A stretch of 64,000 bases of DNA from IMG/VR virus record IMGVR_UViG_3300028393_000022. One strand, given 5' to 3'. Below the pieces are notes generated by a model. That model was not told the origin of the DNA and did not search any database. It saw nothing but the letters and a program-made list of their open reading frames with translations. The stretch comes from a virus. Shown here in pieces: positions 2,382-58,491 of this stretch; the stretch's first letter is position 1; each line of letters begins with the position of its first letter. Made by a program: the position numbers and the translations under genes.

Positions 2382-3566
2382 ATGTATATTGAAGACCTAA
2401 TTACAGCACTAGTAATAAATTTTAGAGTGAGTATAAACCCGTTTGACTCAAACTTGGTTTATAGTTTTCACGAACAAATTTCTAGAGGCTCAGGTTTTAC
2501 AGAAAAACAGGCAACTGTGGCAGTAAAGATTTTAAAACGCCATGTGACCAAATTAAAGACATTGGGATTTAATGACGTAAATCAATATATTGAAAATCCC
2601 ACCTATAAACTGCCCATAAGGACCATTATGTCCCATAAACGTATGAGTATCATACCACACGATGTGTATGGACAAGTGATCAAAATGGAATTTCCATTCA
2701 ATGAGGCGTTGTTGGCAAGAATTAGAAATGAAAAAATGAGCCTTAACTACGCAAATTGGAACCCAGAAGAAAAATCATGGATTTTTTCACTGGATGAGCG
2801 GAGTTTGTCTTTTTTAACTAAAGTAGCCAACGAAGAAAATTTTCAGGTTGATGAAAAATTTGAAAATTATCAAAATCAAATCACAGAAATTGAAAGCAAC
2901 TTTGAGCAGTATGTGCCCATGCTTTCATATGATGGCAAAAATTTGAAATTTTCCAATATTTCACTAAAAATTCCTCAACCTGCTAATTCAAACATTTTAG
3001 AAAATTTGTTCGAGGCAAGAAAATTAGGAATTTTTACCTGGGATGAAAGCATACAAGAGACAGATGAGTGGAAAAATGCAGATTCCGTGACCAAGCAATT
3101 TCTACAAGTTTCACCCGATGAAGAATTTTCCATAAATTTAGAAAATACCACTATTTTTTCTCTCAAAGAGATTGTACAATATATGTCTCCTGTACTTTTT
3201 ATAATCCCAGGAGGTACTGAGATTGAAAAATTAGAGATGTGCTATGAATTTTTAAAAACGTTGAATATCGATAACGAAGAAATTAGTGTATTGTTTAGAC
3301 TACCCAAAGACACTGGTGAAAAATTCAATAATTTTGTCAAAGAACAAAAATTAAATTCTCCTATCAGCGAAAAAACCAAAGCAGTGTTTATCAGCAATAA
3401 GGTTCCTAAACCTGTTATTGATTCTAATGTTCATTTTAATGCCATTGTAAGTTTTAACTTTTTTAACATACATTATTCCATCAAAAATTTACTAAAATGG
3501 CACCCAAACGTGATTCAAATGACTGAGAAAAAACAACAAAGGACACTTAACTTTGTCAACATGTAA
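2382..3566 (+). CDS. Hypothetical protein with HARP-like segment, helicase-associated
   Basis: 394 aa; FPFNEALLARIR...WNPEEKSWIF resembles the HARP domain; overlaps the UvsW start. Confidence 0.55.
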   Translation: MYIEDLITALVINFRVSINPFDSNLVYSFHEQISRGSGFTEKQATVAVKILKRHVTKLKTLGFNDVNQYIENPTYKLPIRTIMSHKRMSIIPHDVYGQVIKMEFPFNEALLARIRNEKMSLNYANWNPEEKSWIFSLDERSLSFLTKVANEENFQVDEKFENYQNQITEIESNFEQYVPMLSYDGKNLKFSNISLKIPQPANSNILENLFEARKLGIFTWDESIQETDEWKNADSVTKQFLQVSPDEEFSINLENTTIFSLKEIVQYMSPVLFIIPGGTEIEKLEMCYEFLKTLNIDNEEISVLFRLPKDTGEKFNNFVKEQKLNSPISEKTKAVFISNKVPKPVIDSNVHFNAIVSFNFFNIHYSIKNLLKWHPNVIQMTEKKQQRTLNFVNM

Positions 3567-5013
3567 AATAATTATAAAAGACGAGGTCAATGTTAAGATA
3601 GAAAATCTCGACCTTGATACACGCAAGGCTTTGGTCAAAAAATTCAAGTACGAAGACCCTACTGCACGTTATAGACCCAGCTATAAATTGGGTCGGTGGG
3701 ACGGTGCTGTGAGTTTCTTCGGACTTGGTGGAACTACCTATCTTTCAATGTTGCCGCTGGTACTAGAGTATCTCGAAAACAAAAATTACTACATTGAGGT
3801 TGATGATTTACGCAATCCCATAGCCTTAGATTTTCCTCAAATTTCTGAGGATTTTTGGGGTGATAAAACATGGCCGGTAGGGCATCGTTTTGCCGGCGAA
3901 AAGATTAGGCTACGTGATGACCAAGTCGATGTAGTTAATATCTTTTTACAAAATCCACAGAGTATTCAAGAGATTGCCACAGGTTTTGGCAAGACGATTA
4001 CCACCGCTACACTGGCAAAAATATGTGAAAAATATGGTCGAACAGTGACCATTGTTCCTAACAAAAGTTTAGTTGAACAGACTGAAGAAGACTTTATCAA
4101 CTGTGGTTTAGACGTTGGTGTTTATTATGGTGATAGAAAAAATCTAGACAAAACACATACTATTTGCACTTGGCAAAGTTTGAATATTTTAGACAAAAAA
4201 TCCAAAAATATTGACGAAAATGAATTGCTGACATTGGCAGAATTACTCGACGGTGTTAATTGTGTCATGGTAGATGAGGTGCATATGGCCAAGGCTGAAG
4301 TACTGAAAAATCTATTGACACGCAATCTTGCCAATGCACCAATTCGGTGGGGACTAACTGGTACTGTGCCCAAGGAAGACTTTGAGTTTCAAAGCCTAAA
4401 AGCTAGCCTAGGTGAAGTTGTTAATAGAGTACAGGCTCACACATTACAAGAAGCTGGTATCCTCAGTACATGTCATGTCAATGTTGTTCAGACAGCCGAG
4501 TGGAAAGAGTTTGGTAGTTATCCAGAAGAATTAAAATTTTTAGTCACCGACGAAGACAGGATGAAATTCATATCAGAATTAATTAAAGATATTGGCAATA
4601 CAGGCAACACATTGGTGTTGGTAGATAGAATTGAATGTGGGGAATTTATTGTTAATCAAATTCCAGACAGCGTATTCATCTCAGGTAGAATCAAAACAAA
4701 AGATAGAAAAGAGGAATATGATGAAGTTAAGACTGCTACTAACAAGATTATTGTGGCGACTTACGGTGTGGCCGCTGTGGGTATTAATATCCCCCGTATT
4801 TTTAATCTGGTTATGCTGGAATCCGGAAAGAGCTTTACACGGGTTATACAAAGCATTGGGCGAGGCATTCGAAAAGCAGACGACAAAGACTTCGTCCAGA
4901 TCTGGGATATTACTGCATCAACGAAATATGCGAAGAGACACCTTACAGCACGGAAAAAGTTTTATAAAGACGCTAAGTACCCGTTCGAAATACAAAAAGT
5001 GAAATACAAATAA
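3553..5013 (+). CDS. uvsW: UvsW-like SF2 DNA helicase
   Basis: ATGFGKT, DEVH, GLTGT and QSIGRGIR motifs. Confidence 0.92.
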   Translation: MSTCKIIIKDEVNVKIENLDLDTRKALVKKFKYEDPTARYRPSYKLGRWDGAVSFFGLGGTTYLSMLPLVLEYLENKNYYIEVDDLRNPIALDFPQISEDFWGDKTWPVGHRFAGEKIRLRDDQVDVVNIFLQNPQSIQEIATGFGKTITTATLAKICEKYGRTVTIVPNKSLVEQTEEDFINCGLDVGVYYGDRKNLDKTHTICTWQSLNILDKKSKNIDENELLTLAELLDGVNCVMVDEVHMAKAEVLKNLLTRNLANAPIRWGLTGTVPKEDFEFQSLKASLGEVVNRVQAHTLQEAGILSTCHVNVVQTAEWKEFGSYPEELKFLVTDEDRMKFISELIKDIGNTGNTLVLVDRIECGEFIVNQIPDSVFISGRIKTKDRKEEYDEVKTATNKIIVATYGVAAVGINIPRIFNLVMLESGKSFTRVIQSIGRGIRKADDKDFVQIWDITASTKYAKRHLTARKKFYKDAKYPFEIQKVKYK

Positions 5014-21311: not shown

Positions 21312-21485
21312 TTAATAGGTTTCTTTGACGATATCGAACTGATCGGCAGGGTATTGGGCCTTGAACTCCTCAGTCTTGACATATTCGTTGTAGCTCTTGG
21401 CTTCGAAGAATACCTTCTTGAGAACACTCACATGCTTGCCTTTGGGCAGTACGGTTAGGTAGATGGATTTTGCTTTGCCTGCCAT
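21312..21485 (-). CDS. 57-aa early protein (not in ORF track)
   Basis: MAGKAKSIYLTV...KETY; SD AAGGA. Confidence 0.65.
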   Translation of the reverse strand: MAGKAKSIYLTVLPKGKHVSVLKKVFFEAKSYNEYVKTEEFKAQYPADQFDIVKETY

Positions 21486-31709: not shown

Positions 31710-31787
<78 letters not shown>

Positions 31788-32060: not shown

Positions 32061-32193
32061 CTCTAGCGGGGTTTTCTTATATAGGGTACAGTAGTATATA
32101 CAATATACCAAGTAGGGCTCCAGCGGGGTTTTGTTGTATCGAGTGTACTACGCTGCACACCGATCATTGATCGTCTCTAGCGGGGTTTTCTTA
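32061..32193. repeat. Three 19-bp direct repeats with exact 57-bp period
   Basis: CTCTAGCGGGGTTTTCTTA at 32061 and 32175; CTCCAGCGGGGTTTTGTTG at 32118. Confidence 0.8.
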
Positions 32194-32741
32194 CGTATAT
32201 GAACTCTAACAGTGTGTGATCGTAAACTATTCTCACTTACAAATAGCCCACTACAGCTAACACACTTGTATTTCCTGGTGTCTTCTAGTAGGGTGCTTTC
32301 TGGATGATCTTTACGTATATGTTTACTCATATACTGAGGAGCATACTCTTTGGCACACAACACACATATACTCTTTGTATGCTTACGCCCTTTAAGACTA
32401 TTACTAATAGCAGAGAGTGTTTCTTCACTATGCTTTTTACCAGTCATACCATTGGCCTCTCCGTATAGTATAGGATTGACTCCGCCGTCTGTTTTGTTAT
32501 GTAGTATGCCCGTGCCTAGATCTTTACGTCCGTAATGTTTAATAAGCTCTGTTTCCAAATCCATAGCTTGTTCATTAGTAAGACTTTCTTGTAGTATTAT
32601 TATACGAGAGCGATCTGGAGGAAGTTGTATTCCTCGTTTGACATGTCCAGACTTATCCCAAGCTCGATAGCCTTTACCTTTGCCTATATAGTAGGGAGAT
32701 TGATCTTCACGCAGGTATGCGTATACGTAGTAAATAGTCAT
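32148..32741 (-). CDS. Free-standing GIY-YIG homing endonuclease with NUMOD3 and C-terminal C2H2-like fingers
   Basis: YVYAY...YYIGKG, R, ETELI, LHNKTDGG; GKKHSEET; CVLC..HIRKDH and CVSC..HTVRVH. Confidence 0.85.
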   Translation of the reverse strand: MTIYYVYAYLREDQSPYYIGKGKGYRAWDKSGHVKRGIQLPPDRSRIIILQESLTNEQAMDLETELIKHYGRKDLGTGILHNKTDGGVNPILYGEANGMTGKKHSEETLSAISNSLKGRKHTKSICVLCAKEYAPQYMSKHIRKDHPESTLLEDTRKYKCVSCSGLFVSENSLRSHTVRVHIRKKTPLETINDRCAA

Positions 32742-32815
32742 GCTGATAGTTCCTTTCAAATGTTGACTGTTAGAGTGGATGGATACTGGTAATATCGCGA
32801 TCCGCACCATTATTT
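32732..32815. ncRNA. Conserved two-hairpin element over the GIY-YIG RBS/start (copy 1)
   Basis: Shares AAATAGTCATGCTGAT, TCCTT, TTAGAGT, CGCGA, CACC and TTATTT with 53969-54046; stems covary. Confidence 0.65.
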
Positions 32816-32853
32816 GTTGATTTGCCCCATGTCTAATATGATATATACTATAT

Positions 32854-52628: not shown

Positions 52629-52657
52629 TTGACAAAGCCCTGTTTCAGTGCTATACT
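52629..52657 (+). promoter_or_regulatory. sigma70-type promoter
   Basis: TTGACA-N17-TATACT. Confidence 0.75.
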
Positions 52658-52707: not shown

Positions 52708-53286
52708 ATGACTGAAATTACGCTAGATCGGGAACAGGCACAAGTAGAGATTCCTAGTTCGGTCTTAAAAGGAATCAAAGCTCTACTAATGGTGCTGGCA
52801 CTGACTTTTTCAGTGTTGATGCTCAAATGGGTTGTAGTTGACAAGCTCGACAAATACGAATCCGCTGAGAGTTCTCAAATCACAACAGCAATGAGGGAAC
52901 GACAACTAGGTTGTTTGTCCAAAAATATTTACTATGAAGCAGGTAGCGAGCCATTTGAGGGGAGAGTTGCAGTGGCTCAGGTAACAATGAACCGTGTGAA
53001 CAGCGGACAGTTTCCGGATGATGTTTGCAAAACAATTTATCAACGCAATATCTTTTATGAAAAGATTATATGTCAGTTTTCTTGGACATGTAATAGAGAT
53101 TCTGGTATGCGGCCACCCGATAATGCTAGCTACAGAGAAAGCGAAGAAGTGGCTAAGAAAGTTCTCTTAGAAGGCTTCCGTTTACCTAGTTTGGACAAAG
53201 CATTGTACTATCATGCCTCGTATATATCGCCGGGATGGAAACGTAAACGTATTATACAAATTGGACAGCATATCTTTTATGAGTGA
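52708..53286 (+). CDS. Cell-wall hydrolase, SleB/Hydrolase_2 family, with N-terminal TM
   Basis: CLSKNIYYEA, VAQVTMNRV, CQFSW, YYHA, IGQHIFY. Confidence 0.9.
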   Translation: MTEITLDREQAQVEIPSSVLKGIKALLMVLALTFSVLMLKWVVVDKLDKYESAESSQITTAMRERQLGCLSKNIYYEAGSEPFEGRVAVAQVTMNRVNSGQFPDDVCKTIYQRNIFYEKIICQFSWTCNRDSGMRPPDNASYRESEEVAKKVLLEGFRLPSLDKALYYHASYISPGWKRKRIIQIGQHIFYE

Positions 53287-53978
53287 ATTGAGCAATGCCA
53301 TCCGTTGTATATTTTACAACGTCCATTAGCAATATTTCTCATTGCTCTTTCATCTAAGGAATTTTCTTTACAAAAGTTCCTTAGATTCTTTATTATTTCT
53401 GTAGTTCCTGTCGGATGAGTTATACACCAAGTCTTTGCCCTACACATGTTATTAAGGGCATCTTTTGAATAATTCATTGTTTTGCCTTTATTATGTGCAG
53501 GTCTTGGATTTAATTTCTTAGTGTTACTAATTCTTTGTTTCATTGATTCGGACATAGGTACTCCTTTGTTATGTGGAGTTTTTCCTTTATTCTTTAATCC
53601 AATTTTAATTTTTGATTCAGTAGTATGATGGTCACCCCATCTTGGATGATTCTGTTTTTGAACATTTGATCCGTGAAATCCATTTGGTTTTGCTAATGCT
53701 CGATTTGCATACATACAGGAATTAACTACTTTGAAGTGCAGATGAAATTTTAATTCTCTACATCGAGCATCCTCACTACTGTTATGTATAGAAATTATAA
53801 TTGTTTTAAATAAATGAGGATTAGTTTTCACTTCGCTATCCCATATTGTCTTATATAATTTTGATGATACTGACCCCTTATATCCATTCTGTATTTTTTC
53901 AACCGAGGAAGATCCTATATAAAATGGAGGTAGTTTATTTCCCAAGTAGGTAGTTAAATATGTACAATAAATAGTCAT
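53277..53978 (-). CDS. Free-standing Seg-like GIY-YIG homing endonuclease with NUMOD3
   Basis: CTYLT...FYIGSS, YKGS, E, N; HTTESKIKI, PHNKG repeats. Confidence 0.8.
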   Translation of the reverse strand: MTIYCTYLTTYLGNKLPPFYIGSSSVEKIQNGYKGSVSSKLYKTIWDSEVKTNPHLFKTIIISIHNSSEDARCRELKFHLHFKVVNSCMYANRALAKPNGFHGSNVQKQNHPRWGDHHTTESKIKIGLKNKGKTPHNKGVPMSESMKQRISNTKKLNPRPAHNKGKTMNYSKDALNNMCRAKTWCITHPTGTTEIIKNLRNFCKENSLDERAMRNIANGRCKIYNGWHCSIHS

Positions 53979-54046
53979 GCTGATTGCTCCTTGTTAGCAT
54001 TAGAGTAGTTGGGGAGTGGACGCCCGCGAACTACACCTTTATTTAT
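53969..54046. ncRNA. Conserved two-hairpin element over the GIY-YIG RBS/start (copy 2)
   Basis: See copy 1 at 32732-32815. Confidence 0.65.
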
Positions 54047-54050
54047 TAGA

Positions 54051-54079
54051 TTGACAACTGTGTTGATCTATGTTATAAT
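54051..54079 (+). promoter_or_regulatory. sigma70 consensus promoter
   Basis: TTGACA-N17-TATAAT. Confidence 0.8.
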
Positions 54080-54112: not shown

Positions 54113-54433
54113 ATGAAATTTCTCGGATCTATTGTCCGCTCGATCGACTTTGTCTATATGTTCTTTAAGAACCATTTGGGCCATTTGAGTGCTCATACAC
54201 TAGGCTGGATTACCATTGTTCTATTGCACTTTGCGGCTGTTCCTACCCTATTAGCAATGATCCTAGCACAAAGCGACAAACTGCCGCCCTACGATCTTAT
54301 GTTGTTTGTTTGGGCAGCTCTAACTACACTATTCTTTAAGAGTTTGATTGAGAAGAACTTCCTGTATGTTTCTACAATCTGTATGGGATTTATTGGTCAA
54401 GTAGTAATGCTGGGAATGATCGTATTCAAATAA
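54113..54433 (+). CDS. Small 3-TM membrane protein
   Basis: Three hydrophobic helices, LGW...VPTL. Confidence 0.65.
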   Translation: MKFLGSIVRSIDFVYMFFKNHLGHLSAHTLGWITIVLLHFAAVPTLLAMILAQSDKLPPYDLMLFVWAALTTLFFKSLIEKNFLYVSTICMGFIGQVVMLGMIVFK

Positions 54434-57891: not shown

Positions 57892-57915
57892 AAAAGCGCC
57901 CAGGGCGCTTTTTTT
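57890..57915. terminator. Bidirectional intrinsic terminator
   Basis: AAAAAAGCGCC-CAG-GGCGCTTTTTTT between convergent genes. Confidence 0.85.
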
Positions 57916-58426
57916 ATGTTAAGTACATTTCCCAACTTGGGTGTTGTAAGTGGAATTTCATCTTCTTACGCTTGTCAACCAATTGGAAGTACGTAGGCTT
58001 ATAAGGCTTGACTTTGGGAACAATTTTTTTATTGTTGCCTTTGTTAGCATTACAGTCTGTACATGCACAGCAGGTATTTTCATAGGTAGTTTTACCACCA
58101 TGACTTGTTGGCAGTACATGATCCAATGTGGCGGCTTTATGAGTTACATCATCACCGCAGTATTGGCATTTGTATTCATCACGTAAGAATACGTTATGTT
58201 TAGAAAACCTTACTCCAGTCTTTTTCTTTTGGTATTCTTTCAAGATCATAACTGCAGGAACACGGGTTTCCCAGTATTCACTGTGAACAATCCAGTCGTC
58301 ATACCATTCCAAAACCGTAGCTTTATCTGTTACTAGGTAACGAATTGCTTCTTCCCAGCTGATTGTACTCAGTGGAAGTACGGAGATTGGACTTGCATCG
58401 GCGTTAAGGATTAATGTTGCGGACAT
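57914..58426 (-). CDS. HNH endonuclease
   Basis: RDEYKCQYCG, TLDHVLP..HGG, NTCCACTDCN..K; TTGACT-N17-TATAAT at 58461-58489. Confidence 0.9.
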   Translation of the reverse strand: MSATLILNADASPISVLPLSTISWEEAIRYLVTDKATVLEWYDDWIVHSEYWETRVPAVMILKEYQKKKTGVRFSKHNVFLRDEYKCQYCGDDVTHKAATLDHVLPTSHGGKTTYENTCCACTDCNANKGNNKKIVPKVKPYKPTYFQLVDKRKKMKFHLQHPSWEMYLT

Positions 58427-58491
58427 GATTTTACTACTTGGTTATTGTTCCATAATATTTATTATAGCATGGAATACCGGTAAAGTCAATG

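Follow-up and report, generated by a model that had tools for sequence, protein, structure and literature searches.

A conserved two-hairpin cassette at the start of homing endonuclease genes in uncultured T4-type phages: a candidate portable cis-antisense RNA

Large phages carry homing endonuclease genes more commonly than any other kind of selfish gene, and the textbook answer to the question of how a phage tolerates a dozen or more of them is the use of late promoters plus hairpins that hold the ribosome-binding site (RBS) of the mRNA. The T-even homing endonuclease genes for I-TevI and mobE of Aeh1 are controlled in this way by a late promoter and an RBS hairpin, whereby the T4-type late promoter (TATAAATA or NATAAATA) occupies positions -13 to -6, five bases from the transcription start. 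An association with RNA genes is also known for T4 segB, which sits beside an RNA-gene cluster. In E. coli, symE is accompanied by SymR, a cis-antisense small RNA of ~77 nt with its promoter just inside the symE coding region. In the case of IS10/Tn10, the 69-nt RNA-OUT is made from a facing promoter and blocks ribosome binding on the transposase mRNA, an effect that increases with copy number (PMC5006887). Conserved 5' hairpins with TATAAATA have been reported upstream of free-standing endonuclease genes in the Global Ocean Sampling (GOS) metagenomes, where they were read on the mRNA strand (PMC2677866), an antisense RNA named CfrI was experimentally seen opposite a homing endonuclease gene in the T4-like cyanophage S-PM2 (PMC2984593), and the PeSL elements are terminator-promoter cassettes of T4-like phages that consist of a simple stem-loop plus an early promoter (PMC4122927). 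Here we describe a cassette of ~85 bp that occurs twice in a 64,000-nt stretch of the virus record IMGVR_UViG_3300028393_000022 (the window; position 1 is its first letter and all coordinates without a locus name refer to it), on the + strand at 32731-32822 (copy 1) and 53968-54051 (copy 2), each copy overlapping the start of a nuclease open reading frame (ORF) on the - strand. Its closest analogue appears to be the RNA-IN/RNA-OUT pair of IS10.

The comparison of many homologues leads us to propose, with moderate confidence, that the cassette is a portable expression-and-control module of free-standing homing endonuclease genes in uncultured T4-type freshwater phages, in which a cis-antisense RNA of ~70-80 nt driven by a late promoter would restrain the nuclease. 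Read along the + strand, the proposed module comprises TAAATA, five nucleotides including the complement of the start codon, a two-hairpin core of ~65-70 nt, another five nucleotides and TATTTA. On the nuclease strand, the right box (NATAAATA) would serve as a T4-type late promoter that is followed by the 5' untranslated region, the RBS, the AUG and the first 3-4 codons. The left box would be an opposing late-type promoter, from which antisense transcription should start at the G of GCUGAU, and the resulting RNA is predicted to end at the second hairpin (P2) plus a U-rich tract, P2 acting as terminator-like stabiliser. Such an RNA would be fully complementary to the mRNA leader from the predicted 5' end of the latter through the RBS to the AUG, and the loop of its first hairpin (P1) would display the anti-RBS sequence CUCC. 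Pairing of both RNAs might block ribosome binding, cause cleavage of the duplex, or both, and thereby limit the amount of an enzyme that could damage the phage itself; since many copies can be present per genome, this limitation might also operate in trans. From the sequence we infer that either box can fire, that transcription terminates at P2 and that the outcome is repression rather than mRNA stabilisation.

The cassette is widespread among uncultured phages. Two exact-pattern scans of IMG/VR returned at least 119 and at least 117 loci, and the cassette was found in >230 loci from uncultured viral contigs, nearly all of the listed matches having the same architecture. About 200 distinct instances were gathered, 148 of which were aligned (alignment A2) and form the basis of the covariance model R1. 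Several loci harbor 2-3 cassette copies, a 259-kb contig contains eight and a 333-kb contig (G001, 92% complete) contains 13. The outer stem of P2 is identical in 0.49 of the pairs of copies within a locus versus 0.385 of the pairs between loci; the idea that copies are homogenised within a genome was dropped on these figures, which indicate a weak effect at best. The carriers encode a T4-type Gp23 capsid protein (E ~1e-98; 2e-98 in the 333-kb phage). Among 185,579 bacterial and archaeal species genomes, matches were confined to four short contigs (L256-L259) of metagenome-assembled genomes, namely two uncultured Bacteroidetes, a Haliscomenobacter sp. and one Erysipelotrichaceae bin. These contigs are probably binned phage DNA and give a weak hint at freshwater Bacteroidota as hosts. 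A megablast search with 4 kb around copy 1 gave only tRNA matches and no close cultured phage.

No named RNA family was found to correspond to the cassette, as the preliminary description of the window had already suspected. A search of the whole window against Rfam 15 at the gathering threshold returned two tRNAs only, and in E-value mode (up to 1 and up to 10) nothing was found at the cassette in the carrier loci L050 and L007 or at copy 2 of the window; the best match, Yfr19, reached 16 bits against a cut-off of 70. The cassette family may be contained, without a name, among the 10,006 candidate viral RNAs listed in PMC10690425. As a separate observation, the carrier L050 encodes at 3490-3567 (-) a freshwater-2 RNA (RF02980; 66 bits, cut-off 49.9) approximately 2.6 kb from its cassette, hence the lake-phage clade carries this orphan motif too. 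Altogether, the hundreds of loci in uncultured phages, the covariation and gene association described below and the absence from Rfam support the core of the preliminary description, which had seen in the two copies a mobile structured-RNA module travelling with homing endonucleases.

The case for a conserved fold rests on comparison, because the folding energies of the single sequences are unremarkable (z-scores of -0.9 and -1.5 for the two copies of the window). The + strand consensus begins with GCUGAU, an inner stem with CUCC in its loop, UUAGAG and a 6-bp stem, and continues with GG, an inner stem and loop, CGCGA, the complement of the 6-bp stem, ACC and UUUAUUUAU. RNAalifold folds it into P1, where CUGA:UUAG encloses the inner stem, a single A as linker, and P2 with two bulged G's. 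Standard pairs make up 97.1% of the cells in the 148 aligned sequences, compared to 83.1% after column shuffling and 33-43% when the partners were slid by 1-3 columns, and double changes were counted in 375 cells whereas 99 were expected. Compensatory changes affect nine of the eleven P2 pairs. GCUGAU, the unpaired UUAGAG and the GG/CGCGA motif with its bulged G's are nearly invariant in the same alignment while the stems covary. The covariation initially seen between only two copies is thus borne out by 148 distinct homologues, and two structural details had to be corrected: the first hairpin is longer than originally drawn, consisting of the invariant CUGA/UUAG pairing around a covarying inner stem whose loop sequence CUCC is the RBS complement, and the supposedly invariant "GCG bulge" turned out to be two single bulged G's that flank a paired C (G59:C79, found as G-C in 128, G-U in 17 and A-U in 3 sequences). 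A closing helix between TAAATA and TATTTA (P0) was rejected, since both hexamers are nearly fixed, no compensatory changes occur, and locus L197 combines TAAATA with TACTTA. Besides the main type, a variant cassette class reading GCTGGTCAT... was noticed (L168 at 845-881 and 2598-2633, L128, L152, L207 and L138/L175). It has another first-hairpin sequence (ATGATGGTTTCCATTG...) and retains UUAGAG and P2; its start codon is located inside P1, and the protein gains an M-T-S extension ahead of T-I-Y.

The wobble pairs reveal which strand is folded. Over all pairs of the 148 sequences, 306 G:T or T:G cells stand against 16 A:C or C:A cells, which confirms the early impression that the G-U wobbles mostly belong to the + strand, antisense to the nuclease mRNA. 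The same asymmetry appears in P2 alone, which could be formed by either strand (48 wobbles versus one A:C-type pair), and among its 40 distinct outer-stem haplotypes (G:T in 17, A:C in one). When the pairs are read on the nuclease strand, only 86.7% are standard versus 97.1% on the + strand. In P1, A20:U48 has changed to G:U in fifteen sequences, and the invariant G19:U49 corresponds to A:C in the nuclease mRNA, where it opens the stem around the RBS. The RNAalifold energy is -18.0 for the antisense strand versus -11.7 for the nuclease strand; the respective values are -16.2 and -9.5 kcal/mol for copy 1 and -17.4 and -13.7 kcal/mol for copy 2. The excess of G:U over A:C, in cells as well as in haplotypes, shows that the selected fold is the one on the + strand, and the wobble asymmetry also implies a tightly folded antisense RNA facing a partly open mRNA leader. 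The core covers the RBS complement, CUCC in the P1 loop, and the complement of the start codon lies in the 5-nt spacer.

The two boxes mirror each other around this core. Of 201 distinct instances, 163 have TAAATA or a one-off variant upstream of the G of GCUGAU at a distance of exactly 5 nt, and 155 have TATTTA 5 nt past the last P2 base, hence the late-promoter-like motif first noticed on the + strand is indeed a conserved box with a fixed spacer. When the 8-mers at -13 to -6 are read in a fixed register, the profiles of the two strands are mirror-symmetric: 97 of 200 left and 119 of 200 right boxes have NATAAATA, a sequence described as the late promoter of T4-like cyanophages (PMC2984593), and 137 and 154 of 200, respectively, have NNTAAATA. 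The left box is independent of the reading frame. Among distinct ORFs, TATTTA begins at offset 5 after ATG in 109 (M-x-I-Y), at offset 3 in 17 (M-Y-L) and at offset 4 in 11 (M-I-F/M-L-F), and where the start codon is displaced by 1-2 nt, filler nucleotides compensate for the shift, so that box and core remain 4-6 nt apart (each of the nine 2-nt shifts retains precisely 5 nt). The occurrence of the same six bases in all three frames before unrelated protein bodies argues that the left box is a signal at the nucleotide level and more than a by-product of coding. The cassette can hence be read as two facing late promoters, with the first and the last base of the core as predicted starts. The lineage appears to use the signal elsewhere, since in G001 the sequence ATAAATA stands within 70 nt upstream of 43 non-cassette genes on the same strand versus eight in the opposite orientation. 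In the same contig (L239-L255), approximately 14 genes show ATAAATA followed after only 4-5 nt by the ATG, e.g. those starting at 21339, 103270, 126474, 275963, 279944, 281531 and 326592; if ATAAATA is a late promoter, these genes would give leaderless late mRNAs.

The 3' side of the core is likewise conserved. T occupies 5-8 of the positions +3 to +12 after P2 in 200 of 204 distinct instances. TATTTA is absent from its usual site in 17 cases, many of which have an inserted TTGAC-N17-TATAxT promoter and a TATTTAT further on, and most of the 17 still have a T-run after P2. The retention of the T-run where TATTTA is displaced implies that the U tract matters beyond being the complement of the nuclease promoter. 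Together, P2 and the tail look like an intrinsic terminator of an atypical kind.

Several families of homing endonucleases are encoded behind the cassette, including GIY-YIG-type, HNH and other enzymes. Pfam searches with 148 distinct ORFs that start in a cassette detected NUMOD3 in 41, HNH_3 in 17, GIY-YIG in 10 and HNH in nine, and the PHROG families assigned to the same set were phrog_314 (81), phrog_655 (36) and several HNH families. The tie to endonuclease genes is therefore tight, while the restriction to GIY-YIG enzymes in the heading of the preliminary description was too narrow. Around 20 cassette instances head truncated ORFs, that is, decaying nuclease genes, and no conserved element was found at the 3' ends of the nuclease genes. 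Each of the six HNH_3 genes that were detected above the cut-off in G001 adjoins a cassette, and several other HNH or GIY-YIG genes of this contig carry the plain ATAAATA box only. A gene of this kind also exists in the window: the HNH gene at 57914-58426 (-; HNH_5 at 3e-11) has a plain AATAAATA box at ~58456-58462, approximately 30 nt upstream of its ATG and without a cassette, so the module is not used by every nuclease gene of the phage.

The window belongs to a large, T4-like, uncultured lake phage and encodes a UvsX-like recombinase, DnaB/gp41-type helicases, a ligase and two tRNAs. The positions originally assigned to its two cassette copies hold (Table 1). A 17-mer, TAAATAGTCATGCTGAT, is identical at 32731-32747 and 53968-53984, the gapped pattern of the second hairpin occurs only at 32770-32815 and 54000-54044 (chance expectation 0.00), and R1 gives exactly two matches in the window, copy 2 with 92.5 bits (E 5.9e-25) and copy 1 with 71.1 bits (E 1.9e-18). 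The observation that dissimilar proteins share similar leaders was also correct: 11 of the first 22 residues of the two endonucleases are identical, and the leaders align at 77%. In copy 1, P1 has the form CUGA...UUAG enclosing an inner stem with the CUCC-type anti-RBS in the loop, and P2 combines the outer stem GUGGAU/AUCCGC, GG/CGCG with two bulged G's and the inner stem GAUA/UAUC. The P2 outer stem of copy 2, GUAGUU/AACUAC, is the most frequent haplotype of the family, the inner stem being GGG/CCC, and the complement of the copy 2 tail provides the nuclease mRNA with a late-promoter-like box, AATAAATA, at a distance of 5 nt from the P2 base.

Table 1. Positions of the two cassette copies, the associated endonuclease genes and a neighboring promoter in the window
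Feature	Position	Strand	Description
Homing endonuclease 1 (P0001)	32148..32741	-	197 amino acids, MTIYYVYAYLRED...; GIY-YIG-type N-terminal domain, NUMOD3, C2H2-like zinc fingers
Copy 1, TAAATA box	32731..32736	+	within nuclease codons 2-4; 5 nt ahead of the first base of the core; candidate late-type promoter of the antisense RNA
Copy 1, structured core	32742..32805	+	P1 32743-32773; linker A32774; P2 32775-32805
Copy 1, tail	32806..32822	+	ACCAT-TATTTG-TTGATT; U-rich on the + strand
Homing endonuclease 2 (P0002)	53277..53978	-	233 amino acids, MTIYCTYLTTYLGNKLPPFYIGSS...; NUMOD3; GIY-YIG-like N-terminal motif by eye only
Copy 2, TAAATA box	53968..53973	+	8-mer AATAAATA is the full NATAAATA; 5 nt ahead of the core
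Copy 2, structured core	53979..54034	+	P1 53980-54003; linker A54004; P2 54005-54034
Copy 2, tail	54035..54047	+	ACCTT-TATTTA-TT; U-rich tract after P2
Sigma-70 promoter	54051..54079	+	TTGACA-17-TATAAT with TG, 12/12 match; 4 nt after copy 2; serves the + gene 54113-54433

Both window endonucleases match NUMOD3 and the PHROG homing-endonuclease families. For endonuclease 1, an alignment of 39 relatives (A4) showed Y5/Y7/Y9, Y17-Y18-I-G20, R26, E63 and N82 to be invariant; the A4 profile matches a solved GIY-YIG protein at E 0.004, and the Pfam GIY-YIG match of the protein itself is weak (E 0.09). Endonuclease 2 matches phrog_10820 at 9e-31 and phrog_314 at 1e-17. The Pfam search gave no GIY-YIG match for it, and its GIY-YIG-like motif, IYCTYL...FYIGSS, was recognized visually.

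Some further features surround the two nuclease genes. Near-perfect promoters of the type TTGACA-17-TATAAT/TATACT with TG flank the locus of nuclease 2 at 52629-52657 and 54051-54079 (+), so that both neighboring + genes own early-type promoters. Toward its 3' end, nuclease gene 2 contains on the + strand an AT-rich hairpin of 14 bp with TCTTTATTAT behind it (53352-53386). The endolysin-like gene 52708-53286 converges on the nuclease gene and stops 66 nt before this hairpin, which could terminate the endolysin-like transcript ahead of its antisense passage through the nuclease gene. Three Logan assemblies from separate sequencing runs (L262, L263, L264) contain contigs of 1229-1251 nt with nearly the same ends around nuclease gene 2, which could reflect breakpoints between strain variants or another cause. 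A look-up of contigs that encode endonuclease 2 likewise gave short contigs, and this locus is present in the JGI lake samples 3300009182 and 3300009151. Just past the 3' end of nuclease gene 1, a tRNA is encoded at 31713-31787 (-).

Several other explanations for the conserved structure have to be considered. The + strand element might be a terminator or insulator only, without a separate small RNA, in which P2 and the U tract stop + strand transcription, mostly antisense to the nuclease gene, and thereby shield the next phage gene with its own promoter in the manner of PeSLs, the left TAAATA being a by-product of coding. This appears unlikely, even though it would account for the selection of the fold on the + strand and for the constant T-run after P2. 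It would also fit the preference of flanking genes for the element strand over the nuclease strand (84 versus 49 on the right, 95 versus 39 on the left, and likewise at both window copies), the TTGAC that starts 10-29 nt after P2 in 35 of 204 instances and the perfect sigma-70 promoter 4 nt behind copy 2. However, no dependence of the fold on the orientation of the flanks was found: P2 is equally intact in every orientation class, including 20 contexts in which both flanking genes have the direction of the nuclease gene and no read-through is expected. The fold is hence independent of read-through from neighbors, which favors an element with its own promoter. Moreover, P1, the invariant linker and the frame-independent TAAATA with its fixed 5-nt spacer would stay unexplained, the conserved bulged G's are unnecessary for a terminator, and the nuclease gene itself would gain no protection from a terminator that lies at the distal end of the antisense path. 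Membership in the PeSL group itself was rejected, because TTGAC at that distance is restricted to those 35 instances and the stems differ from the published PeSLs. Highly improbable is the classical T-even arrangement, in which an RBS-sequestering mRNA hairpin and a late promoter allow translation of late transcripts but not of early read-through transcripts (I-TevI, mobE). The nuclease strand does have NATAAATA 5 nt from the core and the RBS within the complement of P1, and metagenomes of oceans and lakes contain similar hairpins with TATAAATA in front of free-standing endonuclease genes (PMC2677866). Yet the 306 wobbles of the antisense strand become A:C mismatches in the mRNA, contrary to the selection expected for an mRNA-strand hairpin, and one of them, G19:U49 of P1, would open the RBS stem. 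In addition, the right box is situated outside both hairpins, in its regular position beyond the P2 base, so that late and read-through transcripts would fold alike and the logic of the T4 switch is lost.

The + strand RNA or single-stranded DNA might alternatively be a protein ligand or active by itself, i.e. a binding site for a phage or host factor, an RNA antitoxin that binds the nucleases, a small ribozyme or a recombination handle for nuclease swapping. The near-invariance of UUAGAG, GCUGAU and the GG/CGCGA motif next to covarying stems would suit such a role, as would the presence of one leader before GIY-YIG-type, HNH and other nucleases, which receive their first 3-4 codons from it in three frames, as expected from recombination at the leader. 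We nevertheless regard it as quite unlikely, given that no ribozyme or protein-binding family of Rfam was hit at E up to 10 and that the nucleases are too diverse for a common RNA-binding surface; for the recombination variant, the missing conserved mark at the 3' ends of the nuclease genes would leave a single handle, and the copies within a genome are not clearly homogenised. Among the four functions that the preliminary description had offered, the antisense silencer fits best and the recombination handle is compatible with the data, while no support was obtained for a ribozyme or an autoregulatory protein switch. It is also conceivable that the same antisense RNA has the opposite effect, the duplex protecting the transcript of the nuclease gene against RNase E or other routes of decay, or timing its translation. 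All structural evidence for the antisense RNA applies equally here. An antisense RNA guarding mRNA from RNase E during phage infection has been described (PMC3113571), and CfrI of S-PM2 is expressed together with the overlapping endonuclease gene (PMC2984593). This possibility seems very unlikely, because the duplex would cover RBS and AUG, which normally blocks initiation, and the close analogues IS10 RNA-OUT and SymR repress.

Several observations also weigh against the preferred reading, an antisense RNA that restrains the nuclease. The unpaired UUAGAG and GG/CGCGA are conserved beyond the needs of simple antisense pairing, and their near-invariance hints at a further, possibly proteinaceous partner. 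Roughly 30% of the left boxes deviate from TAAATA (e.g. TAAGTA, TATATA), and neither box of copy 1 is the full NATAAATA: the left 8-mer is AGTAAATA, and the complement of the tail gives the degenerate late-promoter-like box AACAAATA on the nuclease strand, 5 nt upstream of the P2 base. Since the left box lies in coding DNA and I-Y also begins the GIY-YIG fold, its conservation could be partly driven by the protein. The presence of left and right boxes is uncorrelated (Fisher p 0.75). The motif TATAAATA is not enriched in the window (three found, 5.7 expected); three carriers likewise lack it in the 200 nt that precede gp23. P2 with its two bulges and a gap of 2-3 nt to the U tract is no textbook intrinsic terminator, and a simple terminator scan did not call it. 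Finally, blastn searches with two cassette copies against the 50,697 cultured-phage records of INPHARED returned nothing relevant, i.e. a cultured carrier was not found.

If the antisense reading is correct, a portable antisense-RNA gene would be embedded in the first 85 bp of many unrelated nuclease genes, which would represent a new layer of control and define an RNA family for Rfam. It would also explain the M-x-I-Y start common to many of these proteins and offer a compact, transferable module of two facing late promoters, an RBS and an antisense RNA. The cassette furthermore marks a large uncultured clade of freshwater T4-type phages. A more far-reaching and rather doubtful version can be imagined, in which the RNA acts in trans as a master that sets a common ceiling on the 2 to 13 unrelated nucleases of a genome (multicopy inhibition), while the cassette doubles as a recombination handle capturing nuclease bodies behind promoter, RBS and first codons, and the bulged-G motif docks a phage or host protein that helps pairing. 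A shared ceiling across copies is suggested by the single-stranded parts and P1, which are near-identical in every copy.

The cassette would resemble IS10 in that the DNA-cutting enzyme of a selfish element is faced by a short structured antisense RNA, here a predicted one, that is complementary to the translation-initiation region and preceded by a facing promoter, in the cassette a candidate. The copy-number dependence of IS10 repression is relevant in this regard, because up to 13 cassette copies exist per genome. The cassette is, however, unrelated to IS10 in sequence and fold, and its putative promoters are late boxes of the T4 type instead of sigma-70 promoters; the overlap would comprise the whole leader of ~65-70 nt, and the cassette, known here from its sequence, serves many unrelated families of phage nucleases. 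With SymR/symE it would share the antisense promoter within the first codons of a toxic nuclease-like gene and an RNA covering RBS and AUG, whereas SymR/symE is a single, SOS-regulated chromosomal locus and not portable. Similar to I-TevI, mobE and the GOS hairpins, the cassette belongs to T4-like phages and their free-standing endonuclease genes, which are closely preceded by a TATAAATA-type box and have a conserved hairpin between this box and the RBS; those systems have the hairpin on the mRNA strand with the promoter inside, while the cassette is selected on the opposite strand, has the box outside and possesses a second, mirrored box. The GOS hairpins (PMC2677866) may overlap with the cassette family. 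CfrI differs by its length of ~225 nt, by linking the endonuclease gene to psbA, and because neither a conserved two-hairpin fold nor a portable leader has been reported for it. Like the PeSLs, the cassettes are short, conserved and repeated regulatory modules between variable genes, might be points of recombination and are in a subset followed by a sigma-70 promoter; unlike them, they have different stem sequences, are tied to endonuclease starts and show an antisense-strand fold over the RBS.

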